A DNA stretch of 64,000 bases from an uncultured Methanosarcinales archaeon. Lineage in GTDB: Archaea; Nanobdellota; Nanobdellia; Woesearchaeales; CAZYIM01. The notes under the pieces are model-generated. The model was not told the DNA's origin. It made no database searches and saw nothing but the letters and a program-made list of their open reading frames with translations. The DNA lies in contig CAZYIM010000009.1 of NCBI GenBank assembly GCA_964647565.1, positions 11,266 to 75,265 of the forward strand, given 5' to 3'. Shown here in pieces: positions 461-58,050 of the stretch; the stretch's first letter is position 1, and the number at the start of each line of letters is the position of its first letter. The position numbers were made by a program, and so were the translations under genes.

Positions 461-464
461 GAAG

Positions 465-1868
465 ATGACACTCGAAGAAGATATCAATAAAACAAGGAAA
501 AAGCTTAAGAGGACTAAGTTTAAGAAAGAAAGGAAATTTAAGATGAAGTCTTGGATGTGGGGTGCTGCATCAATAGTATTCATCGGCTCAACAATAGGCA
601 TAAGCTCCTGGTTAAACAACAATTATTTCCCAAGCAAACAAACTGTTGCCTCTCAAGACAACACGCAAGTAGTAGCAAGTGTGATTGAAGATACATTAAA
701 AGTAGAACAACCTACTTTAATCGACAACCTGACAAAGGAATTTACTCCAACAATAGATAGAAAGAGTTCAGACCCTTTGATTGCAGACTTATTAAAGAGA
801 AAAGCAAATGAATATTCAAGTTTACCCAGAGGAAAAAAATATGCATTTAATGAAGAAAACATTGTTGATATGTTCACAGATCATCAAGGTGCCATATATG
901 CATTATCAGGGGAAAGACCTTATCGTCCAAGTGAGTTATATCTCAAGAAATTAACTGTAACGTCTAATGAAATAATAGTCAGATCCATGAATATACTTGG
1001 GAAACGGATTGCGAGCAATGAAATCTACTTCGGGGGCTTTGATAAATTTGGAAACGGATATTTCTATACGCATCTGAAGGACATAAAAGGCCAAGGAATT
1101 TCAAAACATTATATCCAGATTGAAAAGCTAAGATTTGACTCTGTCGGAAAGATTGTAAATCGTGAAAAAGCAGGTCTTATCAAGTTTTCAAACAATCCTA
1201 AGACTATTAGTTTGCAAGGCGCTTACTGCGATATTGAAGGCAACCATTACCTTGCAATAGGTCTAACCAGGCCAGGTCACAACGATAGAGGAATCCTGGA
1301 GATCGATGGGAAAAATCTTGACTTAACTGCGTTACGTGGGCAAGATGAAGTTATTATTTCAGATCTCCACAGCAAAACAAGTAATCAATTCATTAAACTC
1401 CCGAATAAGGTAAATTCAAGATACCATTTTAGAGGCTGGCTAGAATCTGGAGGGGGAGGGACTAAAAGATTCGAAACCTATGATGGAGAATTTTTAATGT
1501 GTCCATCAGGAGGTGCTAGTTTCAATGTTTTTAATGAAAGTATGGAACGTATTTTTGCCCATGACTATAACAGCAATTACTATGCAAAGGATTCAAGAAA
1601 CAGGATTATCGAGATTAAACACTGTCACAGGTTTGTTATAAGTCCCTATGATAATTTCTATGGATTAAGGCGTAATTATCCTCTGATTAGAGTAATTACA
1701 ATGAAAAAAGACACTAAATGGTGGCCATATCTGGTTGAAACGATAAGAAATTATGTCGATGATGAAAGGTTGGTTAGTTTCAAAGATCTAAGAGTAGGCG
1801 TTGCAGATAACAACCATCTCTATGTTATTGAACCTGGATTCCTACATAAGATAAACATTAAAAAATGA
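465..1868 (+). CDS. Leader-array protein 1: leader, TM helix and degenerate NHL-like beta-propeller
   Basis: Starts MTLEEDINKTRKKL; hydrophobic WMWGAASIVFIGSTIGISSW; EIYFGGFDKFGNGYFY block shared with the genes at 7684 and 8997. Confidence 0.75.
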   Translation: MTLEEDINKTRKKLKRTKFKKERKFKMKSWMWGAASIVFIGSTIGISSWLNNNYFPSKQTVASQDNTQVVASVIEDTLKVEQPTLIDNLTKEFTPTIDRKSSDPLIADLLKRKANEYSSLPRGKKYAFNEENIVDMFTDHQGAIYALSGERPYRPSELYLKKLTVTSNEIIVRSMNILGKRIASNEIYFGGFDKFGNGYFYTHLKDIKGQGISKHYIQIEKLRFDSVGKIVNREKAGLIKFSNNPKTISLQGAYCDIEGNHYLAIGLTRPGHNDRGILEIDGKNLDLTALRGQDEVIISDLHSKTSNQFIKLPNKVNSRYHFRGWLESGGGGTKRFETYDGEFLMCPSGGASFNVFNESMERIFAHDYNSNYYAKDSRNRIIEIKHCHRFVISPYDNFYGLRRNYPLIRVITMKKDTKWWPYLVETIRNYVDDERLVSFKDLRVGVADNNHLYVIEPGFLHKINIKK

Positions 1869-2512
1869 CACTTGAAAAAGATGTAAAAGAAACAAAAAGC
1901 ATGCTTGATGGCATGGTTATCAAAACAGATTTAAAAGCAAATAGATTGGAAAAAGAAAAAAAAATAAGGCAGTTGCTTGAACAAGCCAAAATAAAGGATC
2001 ACGCGAGGGATTGGGGTACGGCTCAAGATCTTATTAATCAAGCCAGGAAGCTGGGTGCAGATGATAGTTTGTTTTTTGCAGATTCAATTGCCAAGTTCAG
2101 ACAAAAACAATATGATCAGGCTATCGAAGCAATTGACATGGCTCTATTATTAGATTCGCAAAATGAACAGTACTTCCTTCAACGAGGCCGTACTAAAATG
2201 GAAATGGGTCGATATAATGATGCGATTGAAGATTTTGATTTAGCGATAAAATATAAGCTTAGATATTGGGAAGCTTATTATAACAAAGGCCTGTGCTATG
2301 AAAAACTGAACGACACTGGCCAAGCATATGATGCATATCACAGCATTTGGTATAACGGAGGGGAATACTCAGATACTGAACAAAGAATGGCAATGCTAAA
2401 TAGAAAAAATAAAGAAAATCAGGACAAAATGGCGGAGTATATACATAACAATTCGTTCGAAGGTAAGCTAGAAAATGCCTTTAGGAAAATATTCAGAAGA
2501 AAAAAGAAATAA
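1865..2512 (+). CDS. Leader-array protein 2: TPR protein
   Basis: Starts MTLEKDVKETKSML; TPR motifs YFLQRGRTKMEMGRYNDAIEDFDLAI and AYYNKGLCYEKL; ATGA overlap with the previous gene. Confidence 0.85.
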   Translation: MTLEKDVKETKSMLDGMVIKTDLKANRLEKEKKIRQLLEQAKIKDHARDWGTAQDLINQARKLGADDSLFFADSIAKFRQKQYDQAIEAIDMALLLDSQNEQYFLQRGRTKMEMGRYNDAIEDFDLAIKYKLRYWEAYYNKGLCYEKLNDTGQAYDAYHSIWYNGGEYSDTEQRMAMLNRKNKENQDKMAEYIHNNSFEGKLENAFRKIFRRKKK

Positions 2513-2513
2513 G

Positions 2514-3020
2514 ATGTCACTAGAAAAAGAGATCAAGAAATGGAAAGGTAAACTAAAGGATTTGGTTTTTAAGCTGAAACCTCCTGAAGAGGATCCAGTT
2601 GAGCGGGCAAGGAGGATCAGATTGGATAGCTTTAAGCATCATTATAGATTGGGTAAGAACAAACAGGAATTGAATGATCTTGATGGTGCTGTTGCTGAAT
2701 ATGTTAGAGCCCTTAAGTATGAACCTACTAATGTTGACTCATTACACAGGATAGGTAAAATCAAAATGCAACAGGAGGCTTGGGAGACTGCCATCCATTA
2801 TCTAGATAGGGCGTTAAGACTGGATCCTGATCACCTAACAGCATATTTTGATAGAGGATATGCAAAAGCAAAATTAGGCGATGAGCAAGGCCAGCACAAA
2901 GATTATGAAAAAGGCTTGGAACTAAATCCTAATATGAATGCAGCTACATCATTGGTTGCTGCTTCGAGAAAAAAAGAACAAGATATATTGGATGCCTTTG
3001 ATGGCAAGAGGAGGAAATAG
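2514..3020 (+). CDS. Leader-array protein 3: TPR protein
   Basis: Start reassigned to ATG 2514 (MSLEKEIKKWKGKL), 1 nt after the upstream TAA; TPR motifs AIHYLDRALRLDP and AYFDRGYAKAKLG. Confidence 0.85.
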   Translation: MSLEKEIKKWKGKLKDLVFKLKPPEEDPVERARRIRLDSFKHHYRLGKNKQELNDLDGAVAEYVRALKYEPTNVDSLHRIGKIKMQQEAWETAIHYLDRALRLDPDHLTAYFDRGYAKAKLGDEQGQHKDYEKGLELNPNMNAATSLVAASRKKEQDILDAFDGKRRK

Positions 3021-3021
3021 T

Positions 3022-3552
3022 GTGGCATTGGAAGAAGAGATCAGCAAAACAAAAAAGTTGTTAGACTATATAGAAATAATCTCTCATGATAAAGATATTG
3101 AAAAATACTTACCAAGGACCTGGTTAATTGGACCTAAGGATAGGTCTAAATTGGCTTATTCAAAAGCTTACTATAAAAGGGTGGTGGATAAAACTTACAA
3201 TGGCACTGACTTTAGCGGAATAGATGATCTAAATATTTGTTTGGCTCTCAACCCATACCATGTCCAAGCTTTATATAGACGAGGAAAATTCAATTTAAAG
3301 CATAATCATTACCGCAAAGCTATTGCTGATTTCGACAGAATAATTAACATAAATCCTAATTATGTAGATGTTTATTTACAACGATCTTTCGCAAAACATA
3401 AATTAGGTATTAGATGGGATGCAGAGGAAGATAGAAAGAAAATGTATGATATCATCAAGAAGAACGGTGGTAAGCTCCTTGGAATATCGAATAAAGCATT
3501 TTCAAAAATAATAAATGATGACGCAATGAGCGTAATAAATAGAATAAAATGA
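3022..3552 (+). CDS. Leader-array protein 4: TPR protein (GTG start)
   Basis: GTG at 3022 after GAGGAGG gives (M)ALEEEISKTKKLL; TPR motif ALYRRGKFNLKHNHYRKAIADFDRIININP. Confidence 0.8.
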   Translation: MALEEEISKTKKLLDYIEIISHDKDIEKYLPRTWLIGPKDRSKLAYSKAYYKRVVDKTYNGTDFSGIDDLNICLALNPYHVQALYRRGKFNLKHNHYRKAIADFDRIININPNYVDVYLQRSFAKHKLGIRWDAEEDRKKMYDIIKKNGGKLLGISNKAFSKIINDDAMSVINRIK

Positions 3553-4271
3553 CACTAGACCAAGAAGTACAGAAAATGAAGCAACTGCTAGATACTCTTG
3601 AGATGCATGTAATGTTGCCTTCTGAATCAGAAGAGAAAGATCCCATCAAAAAGTGGATGGATGAACGAGAATCCGTAAAAAAATTCATCGATACAATTAG
3701 TTTTTGGGTGACGGATTCTTATCTTGAAGGCATTAAGGCAGTTTTCAAAGAAATTCCTGAAAATAAAAATATTGTTGACTATAACTTTATTGAAACTGCA
3801 AAGCTCAAGGATATTTGGGTAGAAACTATGACTACTTATTTAGAAGATCGCGTGCTGAAGTACTTCGGGATTAATGAGAAAGATGATCTAAAAACACCTA
3901 TGTTGATGAAGTCTACAATAGGCCTTTCTTCACACGACCTTAAAAATATCATAGATGAATATGGAAAAGACTACACTTTACAAAAGCATAATCTATTAAC
4001 AGAACTATTAGAAGAAAAGATCACTAAAAGACTTTATACTGATGTGGGTGCCCATCTAAATGATGAACATGTTGAAGATGTGATCAAATGCATAGAAAGT
4101 CTGGATGCCACGCATTTCTTAGATGTTAAGAATATGTCAATAAAGGATGCTCTTGAGATGTATGATCTATATGCAGAAAGTAATGGATTATTTACTCCAA
4201 AATATATCAAGGATCATTTTGTGGATAAGAAACAAGAGATCCCTAAATATCTTACAATTATTCCGCCTTAG
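3549..4271 (+). CDS. Leader-array protein 5: helical hypothetical protein
   Basis: Starts MTLDQEVQKMKQLLDTLEM; 240-aa ORF; ATGA overlap. Confidence 0.7.
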   Translation: MTLDQEVQKMKQLLDTLEMHVMLPSESEEKDPIKKWMDERESVKKFIDTISFWVTDSYLEGIKAVFKEIPENKNIVDYNFIETAKLKDIWVETMTTYLEDRVLKYFGINEKDDLKTPMLMKSTIGLSSHDLKNIIDEYGKDYTLQKHNLLTELLEEKITKRLYTDVGAHLNDEHVEDVIKCIESLDATHFLDVKNMSIKDALEMYDLYAESNGLFTPKYIKDHFVDKKQEIPKYLTIIPP

Positions 4272-4989
4272 GCTTCTTGGCCAGGTTCCATAGAATCTTG
4301 AAATATTTTCTGTACGCATTAGCGATCTCCTGGCTCCTTATCAGGATGATCAATGGCTCTTTTGACCACAGAATCAGGCTTACATACTCACCACATATGG
4401 ATGTGGTTACAGGACTGTCAAATTCTCTTGGCAATAGTCTTGCTTCTGTATAGGGTAATTTGTTAAGAAAATGCATCCTGTCCAATGCATCGGCATTGTA
4501 TATATGATCCATCTGTATCTTCAGTTCTTTTCTCCTGTTATGGTAATTAGTCAGGAAAGGACCTATCATCTTGGCCACATCAGCTATGACGCCATAGGTA
4601 TAGATGGTCTGTTTTTGCTTTAAAAATAATTCAAGCATGTTTTTTGTTGCTCTAATGCCTTCGAATATCTTAGCTTCGCTCTTTTTAGACATCTGTTTTG
4701 CAAGTGCAAGCTGCGGCAGGGCTTTAGAAAGCTTGTCTTCTTTTTCTTTGAGCATGTCCATCAGCCGCTCTGGATCGCTGGCTTCAAAGTATTTGGTCTT
4801 ATCCTTTAGAATATATGCCACAAGACCTTTGTCTATCAGTCTTTTCAATGCATCATAGACATTAGTCCTATGTACGCCGCTCTTTTCTGATATCTTGCCT
4901 GCAACTGAACAACCCAGTTCTAGAAGTGCCAGATATACTTTGGCCTCGTTGTCCGAAAGACCGATTTCTTGAAGGATTTCTTCATCCAT
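4258..4989 (-). CDS. TrmB-family transcriptional regulator
   Basis: MDEEILQEIGLSDNEAKVYLALLELG...SGVHRTNVYDALKRLIDKGLV wHTH plus effector domain; start reassigned to 4989. Confidence 0.9.
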   Translation of the reverse strand: MDEEILQEIGLSDNEAKVYLALLELGCSVAGKISEKSGVHRTNVYDALKRLIDKGLVAYILKDKTKYFEASDPERLMDMLKEKEDKLSKALPQLALAKQMSKKSEAKIFEGIRATKNMLELFLKQKQTIYTYGVIADVAKMIGPFLTNYHNRRKELKIQMDHIYNADALDRMHFLNKLPYTEARLLPREFDSPVTTSICGEYVSLILWSKEPLIILIRSQEIANAYRKYFKILWNLAKKPKAE

Positions 4990-5158
4990 TTTTAGTTCTT
5001 TTAATGGTATGATAGTTTTAATAATTTCCGGAAAAAACTTCGGAATGTAAAAAAACATCCGTTTTCATCACTGTATGATGGAAAAGCTTATAAATTTTCC
5101 TATCTTACCGAAGGTCATTATTCAAGATAATATATAAAGCTGGCAGGGGGTAATAAAA

Positions 5159-6421
5159 GTGTCGTTAGATGGCGATATCGAGAGAGCGAGGAAAGACTTG
5201 CAAAGTATGGATTTCAACACGAGATCCATAGACAAAGTCAAGAGCAAAAAGGAACTTGAGATAGAAAAGAAACACAGTTATGGGTTTCGGACATTGATGG
5301 GGAACAATGGCCGTACAGGATATGCTCATTTCCAGACGCCTAAAGAAGATCAAACTTGGTTATTACTTCTTCAAACTAGCTATGGTTTAAAGGGTTTCAA
5401 AAAGTTAATGGATGAAAAAGTCTTTGATGCCAAACTTCATGAAAAGATGGATTTCATCCAATTCTCAGCACCTAATATAGCTGCAGGATATAACCGTATT
5501 TTCTCAGTAGGAGATAACTTTATCAAGATATTTAATTTCAAGGGAGACTTGATCAATAATGTGATTTTGGATTCTGGAATGCCTATAAAATTCGATCCTG
5601 TTTACTATAATAATAGTCTGCTAATTCACGGTATGGAAACTGAAATGCAGTGCTTTGACAGGGATGGAGAGTTAAAATGGACATATGATACTGGATGTCA
5701 CGGTAGAAAAAATCCGCCTACCATGTTGAACGATGCTATTTATCATATCAAGGGCACATCAGATACAATTGCTGTTGCCCTTAATTATAATGGAAAAGAG
5801 ATTTGGAGCTATGACAATGTGAAAGATGTTGAATCATCTCCCGTAGTTATTGGTTATGGAAAAGATAGAAAAATCATATATGGAACACAGGATGGACTCA
5901 TCGCTTTGAATCATAAAGGTAAATTGAAGTGGAGATTCAAAACAGAAAAACCAAGCGAATGGATGAACAGGAGACCACCGACCTGCACATTTAAGGAAGA
6001 CAAGCTTTTCTATTGTATGCCTGAAAGAAATAAGCTCTATTGCGTGAATCCTAAAAAGGGAAAATTACTTTGGGAAACAAATATTCCAATGAATGAAGAA
6101 GAGTTTGATTATCCTCCATCTGTCCTGGATAATCGTCTTTTTATGCCAGGATATGGAAAAGTGACAGCTTATGAGATTCAGAAAAAAGGACTGAAAAAAC
6201 TCTGGGACGTTAATGTGGAAGAAGGGCAGTGTACAACACCCACCATCATGTATGGAGGACGAGTAATCATGTTTAAGAACTTTCTAAAAAAAGCAACTTT
6301 TAGTGATGACAACAAGCTGAGCTTAGTTATTGATAATGAAAGCAAGCCGCTTGACAAATCAGATGTTGATATTGCAGCATTGCCAATGAGTATCGGAATA
6401 GACAAACACCTTATTGCATAA
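5159..6421 (+). CDS. Leader-array protein 6: PQQ-like (BamB-type) beta-propeller
   Basis: GTG start, SLDGDIERARKDL; GNNGRTG motif; repeats CFDRDGELKW, ALNYNGKEIW, ALNHKGKLKW. Confidence 0.85.
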   Translation: MSLDGDIERARKDLQSMDFNTRSIDKVKSKKELEIEKKHSYGFRTLMGNNGRTGYAHFQTPKEDQTWLLLLQTSYGLKGFKKLMDEKVFDAKLHEKMDFIQFSAPNIAAGYNRIFSVGDNFIKIFNFKGDLINNVILDSGMPIKFDPVYYNNSLLIHGMETEMQCFDRDGELKWTYDTGCHGRKNPPTMLNDAIYHIKGTSDTIAVALNYNGKEIWSYDNVKDVESSPVVIGYGKDRKIIYGTQDGLIALNHKGKLKWRFKTEKPSEWMNRRPPTCTFKEDKLFYCMPERNKLYCVNPKKGKLLWETNIPMNEEEFDYPPSVLDNRLFMPGYGKVTAYEIQKKGLKKLWDVNVEEGQCTTPTIMYGGRVIMFKNFLKKATFSDDNKLSLVIDNESKPLDKSDVDIAALPMSIGIDKHLIA

Positions 6422-6422
6422 A

Positions 6423-7682
6423 ATGCCACTTGAAAAAGACATTGAAGGACTGAGAAAAAGTCTGAGAAGCATAGAGTTTAGCACAAGAAGAATAGATAAA
6501 GAACAGAGTAGAAGAGAACTTAAGATAGAAGAAAAAAATAATTTTGGATTTAAAACCTGGATGGAAAACTTTGCACGAACAGGATATTCTAATTTCCAAA
6601 CATCTAAAAAAGAGGGTGATTGGCTACTTATTTTCCAAACAACCAATTATCTATTTGGCTATAAAAAACTGTTTTCAGATCAACTCTTTAAGGTCAAGCT
6701 TTCTGAAAAGATGGATTTTTTTGATTATTTGGTTCCAAACCTAGCTGCAAGTTACAACAGAATATTTTGTGCAGGACACAACTTTCTGAAGGTCTTTGAT
6801 TTCAAGGGTAATGAAATAAACAGCATTTTACTGGAGCAAGCAATGATACCTAATAGGGAAGATCCTGTTTATTATGAAAACAGCCTGATAATAACTGGTT
6901 TTGATAACATGATGCACTGTTTTGATAGGGATGGAGAGTTAAAATGGCAGTATGACACCGAGGTTCAGGGTAGAAAAACACCTCCTACCATGACCAATGA
7001 TGCTATCTATCACATAAAAAACTTGGCTAAAAGGTTAGCGGTTGCTATTGATTATAATGGAAAGGAACTCTGGACTTTTGATAAGATCGAGAAACTCGAA
7101 TCATCTCCAGTAATCTACAAAAGAGGGTTTCAACAATATATAATCTACGGAACACAGGATGGATTGATAGCGCTAGATAAAAAAGGAAGATTAAAATGGA
7201 GATTCCAGACTGATAAACCTCAGGAATATAGTAAAAGACGTCCTCCCACGTTAATGAATGAAAAGATATTCTATTGTATGCCTGAAAGAAACAAGATATG
7301 CTGTGTAGATGCACGTAAAGGTAAACTGCTTTGGGATGCTAATGTTCCTATGAACGAAGAAGAGTTTGATTATCCTCCATCTGTCACAGAAGAACGTTTA
7401 TTTATGCCAGGTTACGGCAAGATAACTGCCTACAAGATCCAGAAAACGGGGTTAGACAAACTCTGGGATGTAGAAGTGGGAGAAGGAAACTGCACAACAC
7501 CAGCTATTGCGTATGGAGGGTATGTTATTATGTTTCGGCATAATCCAACAAAAAAAAGTTTCAATATGGATCGAAAAATGATCCTGGTATTTGATAAACT
7601 TGATGAAGGAATTGAAAAGATGGAATATAATATATCTGCATTACCTATAACAATAGGAGTAGACAAACACCTTATTGAATAA
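6423..7682 (+). CDS. Leader-array protein 7: PQQ-like beta-propeller, close paralog of protein 6
   Basis: MPLEKDIEGLRKSL; long identical blocks with protein 6 (IIYGTQDGLIAL, FYCMPERNK, PMNEEEFDYPPSV). Confidence 0.85.
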   Translation: MPLEKDIEGLRKSLRSIEFSTRRIDKEQSRRELKIEEKNNFGFKTWMENFARTGYSNFQTSKKEGDWLLIFQTTNYLFGYKKLFSDQLFKVKLSEKMDFFDYLVPNLAASYNRIFCAGHNFLKVFDFKGNEINSILLEQAMIPNREDPVYYENSLIITGFDNMMHCFDRDGELKWQYDTEVQGRKTPPTMTNDAIYHIKNLAKRLAVAIDYNGKELWTFDKIEKLESSPVIYKRGFQQYIIYGTQDGLIALDKKGRLKWRFQTDKPQEYSKRRPPTLMNEKIFYCMPERNKICCVDARKGKLLWDANVPMNEEEFDYPPSVTEERLFMPGYGKITAYKIQKTGLDKLWDVEVGEGNCTTPAIAYGGYVIMFRHNPTKKSFNMDRKMILVFDKLDEGIEKMEYNISALPITIGVDKHLIE

Positions 7683-7683
7683 A

Positions 7684-8991: not shown

Positions 8992-8996
8992 TTAAA

Positions 8997-10139: not shown

Positions 10140-10141
10140 AA

Positions 10142-11170: not shown

Positions 11171-11198
11171 CCTCTCTACAAAGGATTGAAAGATTAAA

Positions 11199-11690
11199 AT
11201 GCCGCTTGAACACGATGTACAAAGTATGAGGGAATTGCTCAAAACTCTGAATATAGAAATCAAGAAAGGCCCTTTGACTGAAGAAGAGTATCGTGAATTA
11301 ATTGATCAAGCTTTAGAAGAAGTTAGACTAAAGAAAGAAGTTGTGGTAAAAGAGCTTGAAAGACTAAAAAAAGGTGACTTTGAAAGCAGGTTAACTGATT
11401 TAATACTAAAAGAGAAATATTCGCAGATGAGAAGTGTCCTGATAGCTGCAAACGATAGATTTGGAAGACATGGAAAATATAGTATAATTGGAAGAAAGCT
11501 GACAACTCTTGAGAAATTAAGATATAAAATTCCTAAAAAAGTGGAAGAATCAAACATTTATGATTTGGAAGAAAAGATTGTTGCGAAGATCAAGAAGTTA
11601 AGAGGAAGAAATGTGGACGTGCATTATCTAGAAAAAGAACTGAACAGACTCGATCCAGATTATGAAATAAAGGGAAAGCCTTCAAAATAA
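11199..11690 (+). CDS. Leader-array protein 11: charged helical/coiled-coil protein
   Basis: MPLEHDVQSMRELLKTLNIEI; E/K/L-rich. Confidence 0.7.
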   Translation: MPLEHDVQSMRELLKTLNIEIKKGPLTEEEYRELIDQALEEVRLKKEVVVKELERLKKGDFESRLTDLILKEKYSQMRSVLIAANDRFGRHGKYSIIGRKLTTLEKLRYKIPKKVEESNIYDLEEKIVAKIKKLRGRNVDVHYLEKELNRLDPDYEIKGKPSK

Positions 11691-11700
11691 TTATAGAAAA

Positions 11701-12687
11701 ATGCCTCTAGAAGAAGACATAAAAAAAACAAAGCAACTCCTCGAAGGTCTCGACATCCAACTCAAGAAGGAGATATTGGCAGCTGGCGCTATTAAATTGA
11801 CTGAAAAGGATCTGATGGTTGAGAAGGCTCTCAATCATTATCTTGAAAATTCTTCACAAGAGATAAGCAATAGTTGTATTGGGAAGAGCATTAATGCTAT
11901 GGATGCATTCTATTTTACATTCAAAGATAAATCAGAAGAAAAGTTCGAATTGACTGATAGCATCTATCACAAGAATGAAGAGCTAGAAGAGATTACTTTT
12001 CACAGTCTTAAGAAATTCCATGAGAAAGTTAATCCTGAATTTCTCATATTGATGGAATCAATCTATGATGAAATGGATCAACTTCTTCCAGAATATGCAA
12101 AGGAGTTTGACAATCTGCTAAATCCTACCAACAAAGAAGAAGAGAAGAGTTATCCTGGAATGGATTTCAAGAAATGGACTGAGATGGCGGGAAAAGAGGA
12201 AAAGGGAACCTATACACCAGATTTTATGAGGAATCCATTACCACCCATTCAAACGCATAGCCCATTCCCAACTAAACCAAAAGAAGAGCCTTTTGCCTAT
12301 AAGCCTGACTTCATGAAGATGAAAATACCTCAGATTTCAAATGAAAGTCATATAGACGAGAAATATACGCCCTTGCTCGATTTGTTACATGAATCTGTAT
12401 CTGATAAAGAAATGACTGTTATGAAACTCCATACCGAACTGTCTAAAGTAACTCATGACAATTCAATAACTATGGCAAGGCATCTGCAGTTCAGACAAGC
12501 CAGCCAGCTATTGCAACCATTTTCAGATCTGGATATCATACTTTATCTTATCAGGTAGGCTGTGACTGAAGATGTTAAACTAGATCCCATAAAACTGAAC
12601 AAGATGAGCAGGCAGGACATGATCAGCACATTCCTAAGCCATGAAGGCTATTGGATGCAAAGAGAGTTCGGGCTGGTGAAGAAATGA
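11701..12687 (+). CDS. Leader-array protein 12: hypothetical protein with an internal in-frame TAG at 12556-12558 (truncated allele or readthrough)
   Basis: MPLEEDIKKTKQLL; the frame stays open for 42 codons after the TAG and ends in a TGA that overlaps the next ATG (ATGA at 12684-12687). Confidence 0.65.
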
Positions 12688-13982
12688 GTCTAATCGAAGA
12701 TATTTGGGAAGCGAAGAGAACCTTGGAATCGCTAGTAATAAACGTGTATGAAACAATAGAAATAACACCCAATCCTGAAGATCTTTCCCTTGAAAAGAAA
12801 ATGGACTTCGGATTTCCAACAAAGGGAGGTAACTTTGCTAGAACAGGTTTTGTGGATTTCAGCACAAAAGAGCCTTCAGAGACCATGGTGCTGTTTCTGG
12901 CAACAAAGATAAGTGAGGGAACCTCTCTTTTCGCATATAAGCCGAATCCTAAGCCAGAACTCATCTGGACTATGCCACTAGAAAAGGATTGGATAGGATC
13001 TGAATTTGTTTCCAAAAAAAATGTAGCTGTCGGATACAACAGGATTTATGCTATAACCCAACATCTGAAATCGTGGTTGAACATCCTTGATTTCAAGGGA
13101 AATCATCTTGAGCGAGTTCAACTCGATTACGTTGCAGCCAGATATTCCCACCCAATGGTTTATGGTCATGACAGCCTTTTGTTATCATCGCAAAAAAATA
13201 TGTATTGTTATGACAGGGATGGCAAGCTGAAATGGGAGACTGAACATCCTGCAGCATTTAGTTATCCACCAACAATCGGAAAAGATGGAATCTATTATGT
13301 TTCAGACAGAGGTACAGTATCTGCAGCCTATAATCTGGATGGTACAAAAAAGTGGATTGTTCAGCATAGGGATGGAGAAATGCCATTCATAACTGCTTAT
13401 TCAAAATCATCACCAATACTGTTTAATGACATGGCAATCTATGGATTATGGAAAGGAGTTGTTGCACTTGATAGAAAAACAGGTCAACAAAGATGGAAAT
13501 TCAATGTAAATAGTAATTCGGATCATGATTCAACAGTTCCAGCCCTATATGACAATAAGATATTCTATAGATTCTGGTCTGTCAGCGATGAAAGACTCAT
13601 CTGTCTGGATGCAAGAGATGGTAGAAAACTCTGGGAAACAGGGGTTAGAGATAACAATGACAAACCACCGGTTATTGACCAGGGAAGAATATTTCTTCCT
13701 CAAGCTCGTTCAGTAGCTGGCTATAACCTGACAGAGAGAGGAATTAATTCAAAGTTTAACTTGAACATAGATGTACATAATAATTATATTAATGGCCTTG
13801 CAGTACTTGAAGACTTTCTGGCTGTTGGCATAGATTGCATAAAGACAATCTTTGTTGATGTTAGCAAGGCAAATGGGGAGTGCAAGTTAACTGAACTAGG
13901 AGAAGGAAACTACTCAATTCTAGAGCAGGGAAACGCTACAAATCCGATAATAATAAGATATGATAAGGAACTAGTAAAGTAA
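12684..13982 (+). CDS. Leader-array protein 13: PQQ-like beta-propeller
   Basis: ATG 12684 after GGTGA; MSLIEDIWEAKRTL; FPTKGGNFARTG; CYDRDGKLKW, ALDRKTGQQRW, CLDARDGRKLW. Confidence 0.85.
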   Translation: MSLIEDIWEAKRTLESLVINVYETIEITPNPEDLSLEKKMDFGFPTKGGNFARTGFVDFSTKEPSETMVLFLATKISEGTSLFAYKPNPKPELIWTMPLEKDWIGSEFVSKKNVAVGYNRIYAITQHLKSWLNILDFKGNHLERVQLDYVAARYSHPMVYGHDSLLLSSQKNMYCYDRDGKLKWETEHPAAFSYPPTIGKDGIYYVSDRGTVSAAYNLDGTKKWIVQHRDGEMPFITAYSKSSPILFNDMAIYGLWKGVVALDRKTGQQRWKFNVNSNSDHDSTVPALYDNKIFYRFWSVSDERLICLDARDGRKLWETGVRDNNDKPPVIDQGRIFLPQARSVAGYNLTERGINSKFNLNIDVHNNYINGLAVLEDFLAVGIDCIKTIFVDVSKANGECKLTELGEGNYSILEQGNATNPIIIRYDKELVK

Positions 13983-13983
13983 G

Positions 13984-15378
13984 ATGTCACTTGAAAAAGA
14001 AGTTCGGAAAACAAAGAAAAAGCTTCAAACATTAGAAATCGAGGTCAAGATATCAGAGTTAGAATTAGAGAAAAAATTCAATCTTGGTAATAAGACCTAT
14101 CATGGAGATTATTCCAAAACCAGATCAGTTGATATTAGAACTTCATCCGACGAAAGCGATCTTTTAGTATTATCAAGAAATTTGGACAACGAAATTAATG
14201 TATATCGACCGTTACCAGACTTGAATGTTCAGCCTTTTTGGGGGATTAATATGGAAACAAATAAAGAAGGATGGGCTGGTCTTCAAACATCCACTATAGG
14301 TATTGGTTATAACAGGCTTTTTATTGTTACTCATGCTTATATGCAGATAGAAAGCCCTGAGGATGTCAATGCCTGCAAATCTTTTTTGAACATTTATGAT
14401 TTCAAGGGCAACCTTTTACATAAAAAAAATATTGATAAAGAGTTAGGCACCATATATGGTAAGGAAATTTTCGGAGGACCTAGTGTTGTTTATAAAAATA
14501 ATTCTTTAATTGTTCATACAGCTGCAAAATATGTTTGTTTTGATAGGGATGGCAATAAGAAATGGGATTTTACAAAATCAAAGAATAATGAAAAATTCAG
14601 GATCCTGTATCATCCAGAAATGACCGAGGATGCAATTTATGCACATTATATGTTTGAAGATGGGAATACCTATAAGGTTGCCAAACTGGACTATGATGGA
14701 CAGATATTATGGGAATCACCAGGAGCGCATAGTTTCGGACCATTTATCTACAAAGATCTTTTTATCTTTTACGAGAGTAAGAATCTTGTTGCTTTAGACA
14801 AGGATGGAAAACGAGAATGGAAATATACTCTGGATAAAGGGAAATTCTATTCAAATGTTGTTCTTCACAAAGACAAGATACTAGTTTTGATAGATCCCAA
14901 TCCTAAAAATAGCATAAAAATCTACGGATATGATGAAACAGTAGTTCATGATTTTTTAAGCATAGATGCCATTACCGGAAAAACTGTCTGGAAAGATCAA
15001 TTAATCCTTCCAGGAAAATATAGTTTCGCATCAAGTATAAACAATAAGATATATGCAAATACTTCAGATGAAAATGATAAATATGAATCAACATATGAGT
15101 ATATATTCACAGAAACTGGAATAAGCGAAGGCTGGCGTCGCAAACTGCCTATAGCAATCCATTATAGCGAAATAGCAATGAGGAATAATTTAATGGCCTA
15201 CAATGCGGGCATATTAAGTACGCTAAAAGAGCCATATACAACTGTATTATTAGATATGGAAAAAATCAGAAAAAATTCACCTCCTCCATTAAAAATAAGT
15301 GAAGATACATATGCATTGATAAAGAAATGCGATCGTCAACCTTTGATAATAGAATGCGACAAAGAGCTACTCGATTAA
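13984..15378 (+). CDS. Leader-array protein 14: PQQ-like beta-propeller
   Basis: MSLEKEVRKTKKKL; IGYNRLF, YDFKG, CFDRDGNKKW, ALDKDGKREW. Confidence 0.85.
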   Translation: MSLEKEVRKTKKKLQTLEIEVKISELELEKKFNLGNKTYHGDYSKTRSVDIRTSSDESDLLVLSRNLDNEINVYRPLPDLNVQPFWGINMETNKEGWAGLQTSTIGIGYNRLFIVTHAYMQIESPEDVNACKSFLNIYDFKGNLLHKKNIDKELGTIYGKEIFGGPSVVYKNNSLIVHTAAKYVCFDRDGNKKWDFTKSKNNEKFRILYHPEMTEDAIYAHYMFEDGNTYKVAKLDYDGQILWESPGAHSFGPFIYKDLFIFYESKNLVALDKDGKREWKYTLDKGKFYSNVVLHKDKILVLIDPNPKNSIKIYGYDETVVHDFLSIDAITGKTVWKDQLILPGKYSFASSINNKIYANTSDENDKYESTYEYIFTETGISEGWRRKLPIAIHYSEIAMRNNLMAYNAGILSTLKEPYTTVLLDMEKIRKNSPPPLKISEDTYALIKKCDRQPLIIECDKELLD

Positions 15379-15379
15379 G

Positions 15380-16099
15380 ATGTCACTTGAAGAAGATGTA
15401 CAACAAGCTAGGCGACAGTTAAGAAGATTAGAAATTAAGATATATGAAGCTCCAATTGAAATACCTAAAAAAATAAAAAAAAAGAAAAGAAGATTAAAAG
15501 TTTGGCTCACAAGTCTGGTTTCGATTGTTGTACTGGCCACAGGAGGATATTTTGGCTACAACCCTGCTACGAACTTGATCGATAACATCAAGGAGAACAG
15601 ACTGATTACAAGTATAGAAAATTCAAATCCAACAATCGGCAGAAAGGAATCTATCATCAGCACCAATCCTAGAGATTATAAGACAGTACGGGAGCTCCAG
15701 ATGTTCTGGATAAACCAAGGCAACTCATATCTTGAAGAATTCAAGTTTAAACAGGCACAATCCTGCTACGACAAGGTAAACGAAGTTGAGTTTGATGAAG
15801 AAACTTGGGATGGCATGACTAATGGTGATGTCTTGGGCTCAGCTAATTCGATGCTCAACTCTGCAACTGCTGTGGGTTTGTATATATTCACAGACTGGCT
15901 ATTGGATGAGGGCGTACCAAAACTGAATTCAAGACATGAAAAGCTAGCGCATCTTGCCTCTAAGTTCGAGGAAGGGAACGATTATGAAAGCTCATTATAC
16001 TATTACAAAAAAGCTTACACATTGAATAAAAAACAATCCTACAAAGACGGAATAGACAGAACACAAAAAAAATTCAAAGAACAACAAGATGCCACTTGA
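15380..16099 (+). CDS. Leader-array protein 15: TM helix and TPR-like helical domain
   Basis: MSLEEDVQQARRQL; basic stretch, then TM VWLTSLVSIVVLATGGYFG; SLYYYKKAYTLN. Confidence 0.75.
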   Translation: MSLEEDVQQARRQLRRLEIKIYEAPIEIPKKIKKKKRRLKVWLTSLVSIVVLATGGYFGYNPATNLIDNIKENRLITSIENSNPTIGRKESIISTNPRDYKTVRELQMFWINQGNSYLEEFKFKQAQSCYDKVNEVEFDEETWDGMTNGDVLGSANSMLNSATAVGLYIFTDWLLDEGVPKLNSRHEKLAHLASKFEEGNDYESSLYYYKKAYTLNKKQSYKDGIDRTQKKFKEQQDAT

Positions 16100-17876
16100 A
16101 GAAGATATTTATCGTATCAGGAAAAAATTAAAGAGATTAGATATTAAGCTAGTCAAGAAAACAAGTAAAACAAGAAGAAGTTTGACCTACATTACAGCAG
16201 CATTGTTATTAATCAGCGGAGGATATGCTAGCTATAAAATTGGTGGCCCAATAATAGAAAACACTCAAAAAAAAGGATTTATCAATAATATTCTAGATAA
16301 GTATCCAGAAATACTAGAAAAGGAAAAGATTGCTAATGACAATCCTCGGGAATTGCATAGCGTATTTGATGTTATATGGTTCTGGCATCAACAAGGAGAT
16401 TCTTGCCTTTCAGAATTTGAACTGAAAAAATCTAGTTACTGCTACAATAGGATTCTCGATGTAAAAATCGAATATTGGCAATCCGGAAAAGAACCTGCTC
16501 CTGGCGAAGTTGGTTTTTTTAACTGGAACTATTCACACATGGGCCGTAAGCATGCAGAAAAATACTTGAGCTTCATAAGCGAACTTAAAAAAAAAGATCT
16601 TCCTGAATTTGAACATAGATATGAAAAGATGACCTTTATCGCGGATGAATGGGTTAAAATAGAAGAATTACAGGATGCACTTTATTATTATGAAAAAGCA
16701 TTTGAGTTAAATAAATCTGAAGAGTATAAACAAAATATCGACAAGGTTCTTGAACTGATCAAAATACAAAACGCGAAAATAAACGCTGAACTAAAAGCTC
16801 AGTCTGAGAAGGAAAAAACAAGCAAAGGTTTACAAACTGAAGAGAGTAAAAGTCTTAAAACAAATCCGCCGCCTGCTGTAAAAGAGAAAAAGCCCATAGT
16901 AACTCCAAAGAAAATAATTCTTGATCCTAATGAAGAGAAGCTGTTCTATATGGTAGATGTTCCAAAAAAAGAAATGCCTCACATCCCCTCACCTTCATGG
17001 AGACGCAAGGATGGCGATATTAAAGCTATTTATATGCTGAATGAAAAGGGAAAATCTCGCAAGGATGACTATCTAGTAATCGCTATGGATGCTAATATAG
17101 AAGCGTTAACTGTTTTCAACAATGAATTATATATGGCACACCAGTCGAGCTCAGTGGAACCCTATACTGATTTTGAGGGGGATATAATCGTTAAAATCAT
17201 AAATAAAGAAGGTCAAGTCGTGAGGATCCCTATTGCAGATAGAAGGAACTTAACCACAACAACCCTTGTTAGCGGCGAAATAGATCATCCAAGAAATTCT
17301 ATACATGCTATTCAAGAATTCAACAATCAATTGCTGGATGGAGGTTCATATCCCTGGATTTTCAAAGCATTGGACTCTAATGGACACGCCATTAACAGAA
17401 AGTTCTTCAACACAGGACTTATATGGATTGATGATATTGCGGGGCTGGGCAGCACTCTTTACTATTCAGGAAGCTTGCCCGCTGAGATCTGCAGATTAGA
17501 GAATAATAATGGAGAGTTGGAGAAAAGAACAATCTTAACAAGACCCGACAAATACATACATGAACTCGAAGTATTGAACAATGAGCTATATGCAGCAATA
17601 AGCAATACTGCCTCTACCAAAGGCCAGATTCAGATTATAAAGGCTGTAAATGCTGCTGGGCAGACAGTCAGCCAGCTGATAGCATCAAGAAACTCAACCA
17701 TTTACGCCCTTGCTGTTCTTAACAATGAGCTATATGATGCAGGTTTCTATAAGAAAATCATCAAGACCATAAATACAGAAGGCAAAGTTGTAAATCATAC
17801 TATTCGGGATCTGCATGAAACAGTCTATGCGATGTGTGTTGGAAAGGTAAACTTCCAACCGCAAGTAAAGAATTAA
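16089..17876 (+). CDS. Leader-array protein 16: TM helix, TPR-like domain paralogous to protein 15, linker and repeat beta-propeller
   Basis: MPLEEDIYRIRKKL; repeated motif I.AL.V[LF]NNELY in the C-terminal half. Confidence 0.75.
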   Translation: MPLEEDIYRIRKKLKRLDIKLVKKTSKTRRSLTYITAALLLISGGYASYKIGGPIIENTQKKGFINNILDKYPEILEKEKIANDNPRELHSVFDVIWFWHQQGDSCLSEFELKKSSYCYNRILDVKIEYWQSGKEPAPGEVGFFNWNYSHMGRKHAEKYLSFISELKKKDLPEFEHRYEKMTFIADEWVKIEELQDALYYYEKAFELNKSEEYKQNIDKVLELIKIQNAKINAELKAQSEKEKTSKGLQTEESKSLKTNPPPAVKEKKPIVTPKKIILDPNEEKLFYMVDVPKKEMPHIPSPSWRRKDGDIKAIYMLNEKGKSRKDDYLVIAMDANIEALTVFNNELYMAHQSSSVEPYTDFEGDIIVKIINKEGQVVRIPIADRRNLTTTTLVSGEIDHPRNSIHAIQEFNNQLLDGGSYPWIFKALDSNGHAINRKFFNTGLIWIDDIAGLGSTLYYSGSLPAEICRLENNNGELEKRTILTRPDKYIHELEVLNNELYAAISNTASTKGQIQIIKAVNAAGQTVSQLIASRNSTIYALAVLNNELYDAGFYKKIIKTINTEGKVVNHTIRDLHETVYAMCVGKVNFQPQVKN

Positions 17877-17877
17877 A

Positions 17878-19203
17878 ATGCCACTTGAAGACGACGTAAA
17901 AAAAACAAAGAAAAAACTGCATAGTCTCAGCTATATTATCGATGAAACTCTTGGCATTGAACAGAAGATCGGCTGCTGCTGGCCAACAGACAGGGGCAAC
18001 TTCGAGCGGACAGGTTTTGTAGATGCCAGCGTACCTAAAGAAGATTCAGATTTGGTGCAGTTAGTTTTAACTAATAGTGGCTTTGTAACTGCATTTAAGG
18101 TCGATAAGAAATCCGATAAATTATGGAGTAAAGAGCTGTTCCATTATAATGAAACTCGAGGAAAGTCGAGGGGGCCCTATAGCAATCTAGCTATTGGATA
18201 TGATAGGATATATTGTGTCTTGGATGGATTTATGATTGTTTTAAATTTCAAAGGAGATATTATCAATAAAAAAAAAGAATTTAAATTTAAAAATCGCATT
18301 GAAAAAAATTGTGATATTGTTTATAAGAACAACAGACTTATTGTAAGTTCACAAAAAGGCTTATCCTGTTTTGACAGAGATGGAAATAGGGAGTGGGATT
18401 TTAAAGATCTGAATACAAAAATCACATTACCTACGATTACAGATGATGCCATCTATTTTAACTCAGGAGATCCTAAAAAAAGAAATAAAGTTGTTAGTTA
18501 TGTTGGGGCCATCGATTTGAATGGAAAAGAAAAATGGAGATTTGATTTTGATAAAAGGTTCTTTGAAAAAAAAGGAGATTGGAATCCTGACATATTACTC
18601 AAATCTTCATCTTTGATTTTTAAAGACTACATAATTTTCAGCTATAATAGTGGAATATTTACATTAGACAGAGAAGGGAATTTTATATGGGAATTTACTC
18701 CAAAGGATATACCTGCAATCTTAGGCCCTCCCACCAAACTAACTCTCAGGGGCAATACAGTCATAAGTTACCTGCCTGTAACCAATACTCTGTATTTTCT
18801 TAATGCAAAGACAGGAACTATATTGCATGATACTATTAAAGACGCAGGCATACATTCGTATATTCCAATTCATTCTGGCAAAATTTATGTTAAAAATATT
18901 TATAACCATAATTCCTTGACTGAGTTTGAGATTAAAGATAAGCGGGTTGAGGAAAGATGGACAATAATTTCAGACAATGATGTTGGCCAGCCAATCATTA
19001 ATGATAAGTATGTGATTTTTAATGCGGGGATGTCAATCAAGGGAGACTTCATGATATTAGACAGAACAGATTTAGAAGGAGATTATAAAATCAATACATG
19101 GAGTAACCGGATCAGCATACCTAAAGATAAATATTCAGTATTAAAGTTTGTAAGACACAGTGATGTTGTACTTGTAAAGGCCAATAAAAAACTCTTGTAC
19201 TAA
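17878..19203 (+). CDS. Leader-array protein 17: PQQ-like beta-propeller
   Basis: MPLEDDVKKTKKKL; WPTDRGNFERTG; CFDRDGNREW, AIDLNGKEKW. Confidence 0.85.
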   Translation: MPLEDDVKKTKKKLHSLSYIIDETLGIEQKIGCCWPTDRGNFERTGFVDASVPKEDSDLVQLVLTNSGFVTAFKVDKKSDKLWSKELFHYNETRGKSRGPYSNLAIGYDRIYCVLDGFMIVLNFKGDIINKKKEFKFKNRIEKNCDIVYKNNRLIVSSQKGLSCFDRDGNREWDFKDLNTKITLPTITDDAIYFNSGDPKKRNKVVSYVGAIDLNGKEKWRFDFDKRFFEKKGDWNPDILLKSSSLIFKDYIIFSYNSGIFTLDREGNFIWEFTPKDIPAILGPPTKLTLRGNTVISYLPVTNTLYFLNAKTGTILHDTIKDAGIHSYIPIHSGKIYVKNIYNHNSLTEFEIKDKRVEERWTIISDNDVGQPIINDKYVIFNAGMSIKGDFMILDRTDLEGDYKINTWSNRISIPKDKYSVLKFVRHSDVVLVKANKKLLY

Positions 19204-19204
19204 A

Positions 19205-19237
19205 ATGCCGCTTGAAGAAGATATCAACAATCCATAG
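19205..19237 (+). pseudogene. Leader-only remnant (MPLEEDINNP*) of an 18th array gene
   Basis: ATGCCGCTTGAAGAAGATATCAACAATCCATAG begins 1 nt after the previous stop, like other array junctions. Confidence 0.75.
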
Positions 19238-19275
19238 AAAAATTTATATCTTTCAAAGGTATTGATCAAAACGAG

Positions 19276-19833: not shown

Positions 19834-19870
19834 TAAAAAGATTTAAAAACTTCCAACCAAATATCCCTTT

Positions 19871-36810: not shown

Positions 36811-37102
36811 AGGTTATCACCAAATTGGTAATTGGCAACAAGGGTTTATAAATCTTATTATATTAATATACGCGAATAGGATATTAATTAATGACACAAA
36901 GAAACCTTCAACACTAGATGTAATGAAAATCAGACATACAACTATGCAATTTAACACAAGTATAGGAACTATCTGATTAGGAAAAAAAAATATCTTGTGT
37001 GTTTTTCTTAATATTATTGTATCTGAAAGCAAGTTTCCAGCTGCACCTCAATCATGTTATTCCATAAAATTTATATATCACATACCCGCCTCTATTTTTA
37101 AA

Positions 37103-37792: not shown

Positions 37793-37823
37793 ATTTTATA
37801 AACAGTTCTTTACTCTTTAAACT

Positions 37824-39601: not shown

Positions 39602-39639
39602 TAACAACATTTATATTGTTTGAAATTTATGATCACTCC

Positions 39640-56220: not shown

Positions 56221-56228
56221 TTTCTTGG

Positions 56229-58037: not shown

Positions 58038-58050
58038 TTTGATTATCACC

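Follow-up and report, generated by a model that had tools for sequence, protein, structure and literature searches.

A shared N-terminal leader on nineteen tandem archaeal genes with unrelated bodies, set in a conserved kinase/AAA gene module: a possible docking handle

The window analysed here is a stretch of 64,000 nucleotides (nt) from an uncultured small marine archaeon of the Woesearchaeales (C9:11266-75265, C9 being contig CAZYIM010000009.1 of an assembly of 86 contigs and 2.68 Mb; the genome is called G000 below), and its left end is occupied by an array of tandem genes whose products all begin with the same leader of about 22 residues and then continue into unrelated bodies. The preliminary description of this DNA counted 17 such genes, and all 17 of the N-terminal motif strings that it gave are present at the genes to which it assigned them; two further members lie just upstream of the window on the same contig (C9:9859 and C9:10286), which brings the array to 19 genes spanning 20.6 kb, or 0.77% of the assembly. 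The consensus of the leader, which we also call the tag, is M-[S/P/T/A/G]-L-E-x-[D/E]-[I/V]-x3-[K/R]-x2-L-x2-L-x-[I/F], in which M1 and L3 never vary, position 2 is restricted to S, P, T, A or G, and L14 is kept in 18 of the 19 proteins. The members, labelled T01 to T19, and the one antisense gene among them are as follows (window coordinates unless C9 is given; the first coordinate of each plus-strand gene within the window is its leader start):

T01, C9:9859, upstream of the window: GTG start, 140 amino acids, leader and TPR
T02, C9:10286, with its 3' end at window 2..460, plus strand: 479 amino acids, leader, no Pfam family
T03, 465..1868, plus strand: leader, membrane helix (about residues 32-50) and beta-rich body
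T04, 1865..2512, plus strand: leader and TPR
T05, 2514..3020, plus strand: leader and TPR; start corrected from 2475
T06, 3022..3552, plus strand: leader (GTG start) and TPR; start corrected from 2938
T07, 3549..4271, plus strand: leader and a body without family match
TrmB-family regulator, 4258..5058, minus strand: antisense within the array, between T07 and T08
T08, 5159..6421, plus strand: leader (GTG start) and PQQ-type propeller
T09, 6423..7682, plus strand: leader and PQQ-type propeller
T10, 7684..8991, plus strand: leader, membrane helix, linker and NHL repeats
T11, 8997..10139, plus strand: leader, membrane helix and NHL repeats
T12, 10142..11170, plus strand: leader, membrane helix and TPR
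T13, 11199..11690, plus strand: leader and a body without family match (163 amino acids)
T14, 11701..12558, plus strand: leader and a body without family match (285 amino acids)
T15, 12684..13982, plus strand: leader and PQQ-type propeller; start corrected from 12651
T16, 13984..15378, plus strand: leader and PQQ-type propeller
T17, 15380..16099, plus strand: leader, membrane helix and a body with weak, sub-threshold TPR matches
T18, 16089..17876, plus strand: leader, membrane helix, T17-like part and an extra C-terminal part; 595 amino acids
T19, 17878..19203, plus strand: leader and a diverged PQQ-type propeller; the last tagged gene

Every real plus-strand gene between 465 and 19203 bears the leader (17 of 17); the only other plus-strand open reading frames (ORFs) of at least 80 amino acids in this interval, 4604-4858 and 10701-10964, both lie inside longer genes, antisense or in another frame. 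As had been recognised from the start, some copies appear only after the gene starts are corrected: six of the 17 starts in the window (2514, 3022, 6423, 7684, 10142 and 12684) sit downstream of the first in-frame start codon, and those at 3022 and 5159 are GTG codons. With the methionine of the motif taken as the start, 14 of the 18 junctions between successive genes measure -11 to +5 nt, eight of them exactly 1 nt, and such tight junctions support the assigned starts, which only proteomics could prove.

The bodies are as diverse as was first described (TPR, PQQ, NHL and helical folds). Pfam recognises TPR in T01, T04, T05, T06 and T12 (and weakly in T17), PQQ-type propellers in T08, T09, T15 and T16 (T19 falls below threshold) and NHL repeats in T10 and T11, and gives no match for T02, T03, T07, T13, T14 and T18; one body has a weak sub-threshold match to a family that we take to be beta-helical. 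An all-versus-all BLAST comparison from residue 27 to the end separates at least nine unrelated body classes, within which the paralogs of the reported pairs are 24-35% identical, except for one pair at 58%; T03 is weakly related to the N-terminal part of T10, and T17 is a paralog of the N-terminal part of T18. A membrane helix follows the tag in six of the 19 proteins (T03, T10, T11, T12, T17 and T18), all of them among the 17 in the window, so that the earlier division of these into six with and eleven without such a helix holds. In the six, the tag and a basic stretch precede the helix, and by the positive-inside rule these basic residues would place the tag in the cytoplasm and the body outside the cell.

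Conservation of the leader is a property of the protein, as the preliminary description also held. All six leucine codons are used at each of L3, L14 and L17, and over leader codons 2-21 pairwise identity averages 0.50, 0.675 and 0.37 at codon positions 1, 2 and 3, compared with 0.26-0.29 for control codons 41-60. The 40 nt upstream of the tagged genes are 0.35 identical and thus not conserved. This codon pattern, together with the unconserved upstream DNA, indicates that the similarity starts at the start codon and that selection acts at the protein level.

The conserved positions follow a helical periodicity (moment 0.195, reached by only 224 of 20,000 position shuffles) and fall on one face of the helix within a 160-degree arc, with L3, L14, I/V7, K/R11 and E4 on one side of it and D/E6, L17 and position 10 on the other. 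In an AlphaFold2 (AF2) model of T09, made from an alignment of five paralogs, the propeller is well modelled (pTM 0.77), and the leader is a helix over residues 3-15 that does not pack against the propeller and is of low confidence (pLDDT 34-50). The leader is not strongly hydrophobic: over residues 2-19 its mean hydrophobicity is -0.62 to 0.13 and its hydrophobic moment a modest 0.29-0.52, and residues 1-22 carry a net charge between -2 and +5, which is zero or negative in nine of the 19. Two known types of short helical motif, the Vps4-binding MIM1 and the D-motif of mitogen-activated protein kinase partners, were compared with it by eye, and the fit was poor or trivial.

An amphipathic helix with several Lys and Arg residues, which in six members adjoins a membrane helix, might be a peripheral membrane helix that brings the proteins to the inner face of the membrane. 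We think this very improbable, given the low hydrophobicity, the modest moment and the charge range just described; moreover, the conserved acidic residues E4 and D/E6 and the narrow Leu/Ile stripe fit recognition by a protein better than recognition by lipid. The same helix could instead associate with itself. The hydrophobic positions 3, 7, 10, 14, 17 and 21 have the 4-3-4-3-4 spacing of heptads and conservation is one-sided, so that leaders could form short coiled coils and assemble soluble and membrane members into mixed multivalent complexes with no separate receptor. The tag is absent from every core protein of the gene module described below, and homotypic contacts, if any, would therefore be made only among the tagged proteins. 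However, two and a half to three heptads are short for a stable coiled coil, position 10 is mostly Thr or Ala and position 21 is variable, and a generic bundle needs neither the conserved E4, D/E6 and K/R11 nor an exact N-terminus. Self-association would also leave unexplained why the array is embedded in a kinase module and why a relative has a kinase fusion (both below), and we consider it rather unlikely.

The features of classical N-terminal signals are absent from the 19 N-termini, in line with the preliminary description. As to Sec-type signals, 13 of the 19 proteins have no N-terminal hydrophobic segment at all, and in the six membrane members the membrane helix begins only after the complete tag. 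As to Tat signals, there is no conserved RR among the 19 aligned N-termini, and the sole leader that has RR pairs (the gene at 15380) has no hydrophobic stretch after them. Lipoprotein and class III signals are likewise lacking: none of the 19 has a Cys among its first 30 residues, and there is no hydrophobic run.

PQQ and NHL propellers are typical of secreted or surface proteins and make up eight of the 19 bodies, and the 13 members without a membrane helix have no classical signal either, so that the leader might be a non-canonical export or targeting signal which sends the soluble members outside the cell or into a host. Several observations make this improbable. The tag would be cytoplasmic in the six membrane members, and no membrane segment is found in the core proteins of the module (the top KD19 is 0.99 for module proteins and 1.22 for TrmB), so no dedicated channel is encoded there. 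The density of N-glycosylation sequons does not set the soluble members apart (4.7 per 1000 amino acids, against 5.3 in cytoplasmic proteins), and neither sequon density nor Cys counts separate them from cytoplasmic proteins. Homologs of the PQQ type occur in 42 of 300 other genomes of the order, and no signal peptide is present in the 10 N-termini examined; propellers without export signals thus seem to be normal in this order. The suggestion of a modular system, in which a common tag is fused to a variable binding repertoire, therefore stands for the tag and the repertoire; of the functions offered for the tag, a docking helix fits best and an export signal does not fit. The further suggestion of host-directed effectors finds no footing here: nothing ties the proteins to a host, the tag would be on the cytoplasmic side in the membrane members, and none of the core proteins has a membrane segment from which a channel could be built.

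The homologs just mentioned deserve a description of their own. A single-copy PQQ/FG-GAP-like propeller, in frames of about 395-450 amino acids, is found in those 42 of 300 genomes (43 of 301 with G000; the tally includes the unpublished genomes G244 and G182), and most of the N-termini read have a short basic motif that ends in a conserved Trp just before the propeller. Judged by sequence, this family (L024-L037) appears to be conserved, uncharacterised and free of export signals. Near-length relatives of the T15 propeller body amount to two weak matches besides T15 itself, one with a signal-like hydrophobic N-terminal stretch and the other with none.

The leader is confined to the array. A hidden Markov model (HMM) of 24 positions, built from the 19 N-termini and run against the 24,968 six-frame ORFs of at least 40 amino acids in the assembly, returns exactly the 19 genes (E 1.6e-9 to 1.1e-5), always at residue 1 and clustered in the one array; no housekeeping N-terminus is matched, and the next match has E = 0.32. 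A loose regular expression finds the same 19 and one 17-codon chance ORF on another contig. Among 40 other genomes of the order, one per family, the best HMM matches have E 0.0037 (a 29-codon frame) and E 0.0097, and among 1,175 ORFs of 80 related loci (below) nothing start-anchored is found, the best match being internal with E 0.11. A word-indexed search of 5.8 billion protein clusters gave 12 matches, all of them window proteins or near-identical copies on short contigs; it scored only the 8,000 candidates that shared most words and so carries little weight. At E <= 0.001, 17 proteins came out of an exhaustive HMMER search of 1.84 billion representatives: 12 belong to the array itself, two more are variants or fragments of its genes, and the remaining three are spurious, the match falling inside coiled-coil or leucine-rich proteins that are highly repetitive. 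The tag region (residues 1-25) is covered by a Pfam family in none of the 19 proteins, scans of subsets of the tagged proteins against NCBIfam, PADLOC and PHROGs gave no match there, and a narrow literature search found no description of the leader or of the module. The motif thus goes far beyond chance, is neither a compositional artefact nor a known family, and is so far private to one population.

Two observations touch on variation within that population. P0015, a database protein of 143 amino acids, matches T12 without a difference through leader, membrane helix and linker (about the first 109 residues) and then ends in another C-terminus; either the body has been exchanged in a variant of the population, or the contig is chimeric. 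DNA contigs of four sequencing runs, compared with window positions 1-19900, yielded nothing beyond low-depth pieces that equal the window and two joints of low confidence, with sides of 20-21 letters, and showed no usable population variation or cassette exchange.

Seven genes on the same strand lie directly upstream of the array and form the core of a gene module:

Short gene of Mrr-like nuclease fold, upstream of the array, same strand
cc329, upstream of the array, same strand: coiled-coil protein of 329 amino acids
AAA ATPase, upstream of the array, same strand: 540 amino acids, a single AAA domain with a unique N-domain of about 240 residues
p584, upstream of the array, same strand: 584 amino acids
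Protein X, upstream of the array, same strand: 764 amino acids, lactate dehydrogenase (LDH)-like
PP2C phosphatase, upstream of the array, same strand
Hanks-type Ser/Thr kinase, upstream of the array, same strand: 502 amino acids, Pkinase E 2.5e-23

The stop codon of the kinase gene is 12 nt before the start of T01. The AAA protein belongs to the classical clade, its best solved relatives being VAT, Afg2 and p97 (E 4e-12 to 1e-8), and its N-domain is predicted to be all-helical at low confidence (pLDDT below 50 in the AF2 model). The best score of cc329 in the protein atlas is 0.88, against unnamed clusters, and at E <= 5 no Pfam family is common to more than one of seven cc329 orthologs. PADLOC gives generic matches only (kinase models and weak TRIP13-type AAA matches, E 3.9e-6) and nothing for cc329, p584, X or the tagged proteins scanned, so that no described defence system is recognised. 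NCBIfam, PHROGs and PADLOC together recognise neither a virus nor a described system, and the NCBIfam PknD model matches the kinase domain only, and weakly.

A virus or other mobile element might carry a tag that targets proteins to a particle or capsid, and the G+C content of module and array is slightly below that of the genome (0.358 against 0.384). We regard this origin as extremely unlikely: a PHROGs scan of 15 proteins (seven core, six tagged and two downstream) turns up generic AAA, PP2C and kinase matches only, with none to a structural or packaging family, archaeal housekeeping genes flank the locus, and in related genomes the module is again found beside the same TrmB gene. Elsewhere the window is ordinary archaeal chromosome, with genes for purine synthesis, CDP-archaeol synthase, NucS, Nre and endonuclease dU.

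Among the related genomes, G056 shares seven genes with G000, namely those for the coiled-coil protein, the AAA protein (38% identical), p584, X (28%), PP2C, the kinase and the antisense TrmB regulator (51%). G147 and G020 have the Mrr-like gene, the coiled-coil and AAA genes, one or more kinases, X and the antisense TrmB gene; in G020 the nuclease matches Mrr_cat (E 7e-11), X matches Ldh_1_N (E 2e-11), and a relative of p584 is present. The TrmB orthologs that adjoin the module in other genomes are 46-51% identical. The AAA N-domain is found in 11 of 401 genomes of the order, counting G000 and the unpublished G337. A scan of all species genomes was anchored on the TrmB ortholog, the alignment of protein X being too divergent to serve as an anchor, and yielded 80 loci in records titled Woesearchaeota, Nanoarchaeota and similar metagenome-assembled genomes; about 17 of the 80 contain parts of the module, three of these repeating loci already studied. 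The array is therefore embedded in a conserved, undescribed module with a kinase, a phosphatase and an AAA protein, which is the machinery that co-occurs with the leader; and because TrmB is a core gene of this module and lies inside the G000 array, the array must have grown within the module.

Tags of other kinds occur at the same place in relatives. In G147 and G020 three genes each, between X and TrmB, open with a motif that is shared within the genome and different between the two, and G056 has a single gene of this kind. One pair in G147 is 84% identical over the first 31 residues (E 4e-26) with unrelated bodies (E 3.2), and the third gene there shares 13-14 motif residues; in G020 the N-terminal pairs share a start-anchored motif (E 5e-9 and 3e-5), again on unrelated bodies, one of which is a right-handed beta-helix (G020_p356). 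Five of these six proteins have a membrane helix. As in G000, the similarity starts at the ATG with unrelated DNA upstream (there are 6 synonymous differences in 33 codons), and the G147 and G020 tags are each confined to their own module locus. The bodies of G020_p453 and G147_tm304 are orthologs (37% identity, E 2e-39), although each protein bears its own genome's tag. Tags thus evolve in concert within a genome, as would be expected from a shared receptor or from gene conversion limited to the tag.

Three other candidates for shared N-termini were not retained. The L083 pair scored 42 in our automated screen, which is within the noise, and is not claimed; a likeness to the leader seen by eye in the first gene after the kinase of L059 was dropped, as the leader HMM search did not support it. 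In L077 two tandem coiled-coil paralogs (2927-5430, minus strand; 413 and 421 amino acids, 56% identical) directly follow the module kinase and are identical over their first 21 residues, and we read them as a whole-gene duplication with related bodies, not as a shared tag.

One related locus joins the kinase to such a body. L080 contains X, TrmB and part of the AAA gene, and three paralogous kinases follow X, two of which continue into a region whose homology extends over almost all of the tagged beta-helix protein G020_p356 (residues 270-636 against 10-343, 32% identity, E 3e-41; and 316-678 against 3-327, E 4e-32); one of the fusions has a Pfam Beta_helix domain (E 6e-23). Because robust homology begins just after the tag, the kinase and a linker occupy the place that the tag has in the split form. 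Module kinases with a C-terminal membrane helix are found in L063 and L080.

These comparisons also bear on the possibility that the leader has no function of its own and is a relic of tandem duplication, was spread by recombination of 5' ends, or was kept for translation initiation or coupling. The tight coupling of the genes would suit such an origin, as would the several body classes that are plain tandem paralogs and the confinement of the leader to one population. Extensive synonymous variation and unrelated upstream DNA argue against recent conversion and against a conserved RNA or DNA element, and while the bodies have drifted apart to 24-35% identity or past recognition, the tag has kept M1 and L3 in every member and L14 in 18 of 19, and its conservation follows the periodicity of a helix. 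The orthologous bodies with different tags in G147 and G020 point to selection or conversion acting on the tag itself. A functionless leader is accordingly hard to credit, and we hold it to be very unlikely.

The tag could be recognised by the AAA protein instead of the kinase, as the substrate tag of an unfoldase that would thread, remodel or extract its clients, the six membrane-anchored members included, under regulation by the kinase and phosphatase. The same module does encode a classical-clade AAA protein with a unique N-domain of about 240 residues, and the strict anchoring of the tag at residue 1 (19 of 19) fits recognition of a free terminus. The restriction of position 2 to S, P, T, A or G is in keeping with this, these being residues that allow removal of the initiator Met. 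Against it, the coiled-coil and AAA pair also occurs in loci without evident tagged genes (G233 and G061), tagged genes follow the sub-module of kinase and X and not the AAA gene, the fusion evidence points to the kinase, and the AAA N-domain is modelled with pLDDT below 50. We judge this unlikely.

We favour, as a plausible reading to which we give a little less than an even chance, that the leader is a cytoplasmic docking handle of a one-to-many system resembling a split receptor kinase. The leader would form a short amphipathic helix, with a stripe of Leu and Ile bordered by E4, D/E6 and K/R11, and then a brief L-x-[I/F] segment; through it a varied set of proteins with binding domains would plug into a single, shared partner. 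Six of these proteins would be single-pass membrane proteins, whose bodies we read as extracellular, and thirteen have no membrane helix. The shared partner would most likely be encoded in the conserved module, the leading candidate being the Ser/Thr kinase with PP2C and the LDH-like X, and the tag would then replace the covalent link between a kinase and its sensor domain, as in a split receptor-kinase or adaptor system. The observations that lead to this reading are the presence of the tag at residue 1 of all 19 array genes and nowhere else in the genome; selection at the protein level and one-sided helical conservation; independence of the tag from the body, there being at least nine unrelated classes and an unpacked helix in the T09 model; a tag on the cytoplasmic side (N-in) in the six membrane members; the embedding of the array in a conserved module next to the kinase; and the genome-specific tags of relatives with the kinase-body fusions of L080. 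From these we infer that the tag binds a partner, which partner this is, and that something is sensed or controlled through it.

Several points weigh against the docking handle. The AAA ATPase, the coiled-coil proteins or X could equally be the receptor. The leader is known from a single uncultured population, so its conservation is not traceable over time; the 400 genomes sampled from the order include none of the same family. A profile comparison with hhalign of the G000 leader and the G020, G147 and G056 tags shows no similarity (probability 0.3%), so that generalisation across genomes rests on analogy of position and architecture. An automated gapped screen for shared N-termini put only the G147 pair clearly above background (134 against at most 55), and G020 ties with the top of the background. 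The fusion evidence concerns the beta-helix body of G020, not a G000 body, and the longer relatives of the G000 PQQ body T15 (two matches) are not kinase fusions. The main weaknesses are that binding is deduced, that the leader comes from one population, and that the support across genomes consists of analogy and a single fusion. Complex prediction of the leader (as an alignment of 19 rows) with the AAA N-domain, the C-terminal part of the kinase and the C-terminal part of X scored 0.18 against a mark of 0.32, a result that counts neither for nor against binding.

A wider and much more speculative proposal, which we would call unlikely as it stands, is that Woesearchaeota-type DPANN archaea possess a plug-in hub for signalling or surveillance, in which a cytoplasmic engine is wired by a co-evolving tag to exchangeable sensors, many of them extracellular. 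With equal reserve, the engine might consist of the kinase, PP2C, the LDH-like protein, the Cdc48-like AAA protein with its coiled-coil partner and the Mrr/Card1-like nuclease. If this is true, the sensor set has been expanded to 19 in G000, the system is a non-covalent, one-to-many archaeal counterpart of receptor kinases, and recognition of host cells or viruses is one possible use. DPANN archaea rely on contact with other cells, and to our knowledge almost nothing is known of sensing and signalling at their envelope. A conserved and so far undescribed gene module is in any case delineated in Woesearchaeota-type genomes, and it offers a testable architecture, one kinase/ATPase module serving many interchangeable binding proteins through a tag of 22 residues; if the tag-receptor pair holds, protein engineering would also gain a docking pair that is compact and probably orthogonal.

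Some neighbouring genes and related loci deserve mention. In L052 (G061:C23, about 4.6-19.6 kb of the reverse-complemented locus) the trio of Mrr-like, coiled-coil and AAA genes occurs without kinase and X, accompanied, as judged by eye, by a 647-amino-acid protein with two GxGxxG Rossmann signatures (E1/ThiF-like), a 594-amino-acid JAB/MPN-like protein and two small paralogs; this arrangement suggests that nuclease, coiled-coil protein and AAA protein form an engine to which various regulatory sub-modules can be joined. In the window itself, a run of six large co-directional genes at 51008-62230 (minus strand; 1243, 494, 613, 474, 221 and 665 amino acids) has a Pfam match in the 494-amino-acid gene only (ThiF/E1-like, E 2.4e-33) and may be an undescribed E1-centred system. 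At 36995-38684 (plus strand) a ThiF-family protein (E 3.9e-43) adjoins a PP-loop ATPase (E 6.7e-14), which looks like a pair of the sulfur-relay or tRNA-thiolation type. Two regulators lie outside the array, a second TrmB-family protein at 39616-40377 (plus strand, E 4.5e-15) and, at 21293-22210 (minus strand), a 305-amino-acid protein with an N-terminal AsnC-type helix-turn-helix and an Lrp/AsnC ligand-binding domain near its C-terminus. The G000 assembly (2.68 Mb, 87% estimated completeness) exceeds in size all 40 same-order genomes with which it was compared (0.6-2.1 Mb).

The principle of a shared docking tag on variable binding domains is known; the leader and the module are undescribed as far as the narrow literature search goes, and the array is a member of none of the known systems with which we compared it. 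Dockerins are common small modules on unrelated bodies that assemble on one cohesin scaffold, outside the cell and with signal peptides. The leader is likewise a common small module on unrelated bodies, but it is N-terminal, has no signal peptide and would be cytoplasmic, and no cohesin-like scaffold was identified. Phage capsid-targeting sequences differ in their setting, as there are no capsid or packaging families among the 15 proteins scanned and the flanks are housekeeping genes.

In F-box and SOCS-box families, interchangeable receptors with WD40/propeller or repeat domains serve one core machine, and here too a short conserved N-terminal element stands on a large, diversified set of binding domains. 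The leader has about 22 residues, unlike the three-helix F-box domain of 40-50 residues, and is found in an archaeon; no Pfam F-box covers the tag, and neither a ubiquitin-ligase core nor a Skp1-like gene was seen in the module. The F-box principle itself is described in the abstract of PMC8537223. Unrelated cofactors of p97/Cdc48, several of them membrane-anchored (gp78, VIMP and Derlin-1), dock to its N-domain through short motifs, the SHP box among them; the excerpts of PMC5468458 give the linear VCP-interacting motif (VIM) as RX5AAX2R and the VCP-binding motif (VBM) as RRRRXXYY. A Cdc48-like AAA protein lies in the same module as the tagged proteins here; compared with the motifs as given in those excerpts, however, the leader has no Arg-flanked AA pair and no poly-Arg, the N-domain of this AAA protein is predicted, at low confidence, to be all-helical, and both gene order and the fusion tie the tags to the kinase rather than to the AAA protein.

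Effector-associated domains (EADs) of prokaryotic conflict systems are described in the excerpted parts of Kaur et al. 2020 (PMC7159879) as non-enzymatic adaptors, small and for the most part alpha-helical, at the N- or C-terminus of varied proteins whose genes adjoin a core system, with up to 19 paralogs per genome and with kinase and PP2C modules occurring in such systems; their defining feature there is that one copy is fused to a core component, so that coupling is homotypic. As far as those excerpts describe EADs, the leader resembles them in being helical (by model and periodicity) and in that adjacent or lineage copies are more alike, the G000, G147 and G020 tags being genome-specific. 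It differs on the same reading in that its HMM matches no core protein (Mrr-like, cc329, AAA, p584, X, PP2C, kinase or TrmB), that it is a single helix and not a domain, and that the varied parts are binding domains and not effector enzymes.

The closest known systems are the receptor-type Hanks Ser/Thr kinases, whose sensor domains are extracellular or C-terminal and with which the locus shares an inventory of Hanks kinase, PP2C, membrane helices and sensor-type domains of the NHL, propeller and beta-helix kinds. PknD, for example, consists of a kinase, a membrane helix and an NHL propeller. In G000, by contrast, the kinase has no membrane segment and the sensor-type proteins are separate genes, one kinase facing 19 candidate partners of which thirteen are without a membrane helix, and the link would be made by a tag of 22 residues and not by a peptide bond. 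In L080, as in receptor kinases, the kinase is covalently joined to a domain that in G020 is a separate tagged protein.

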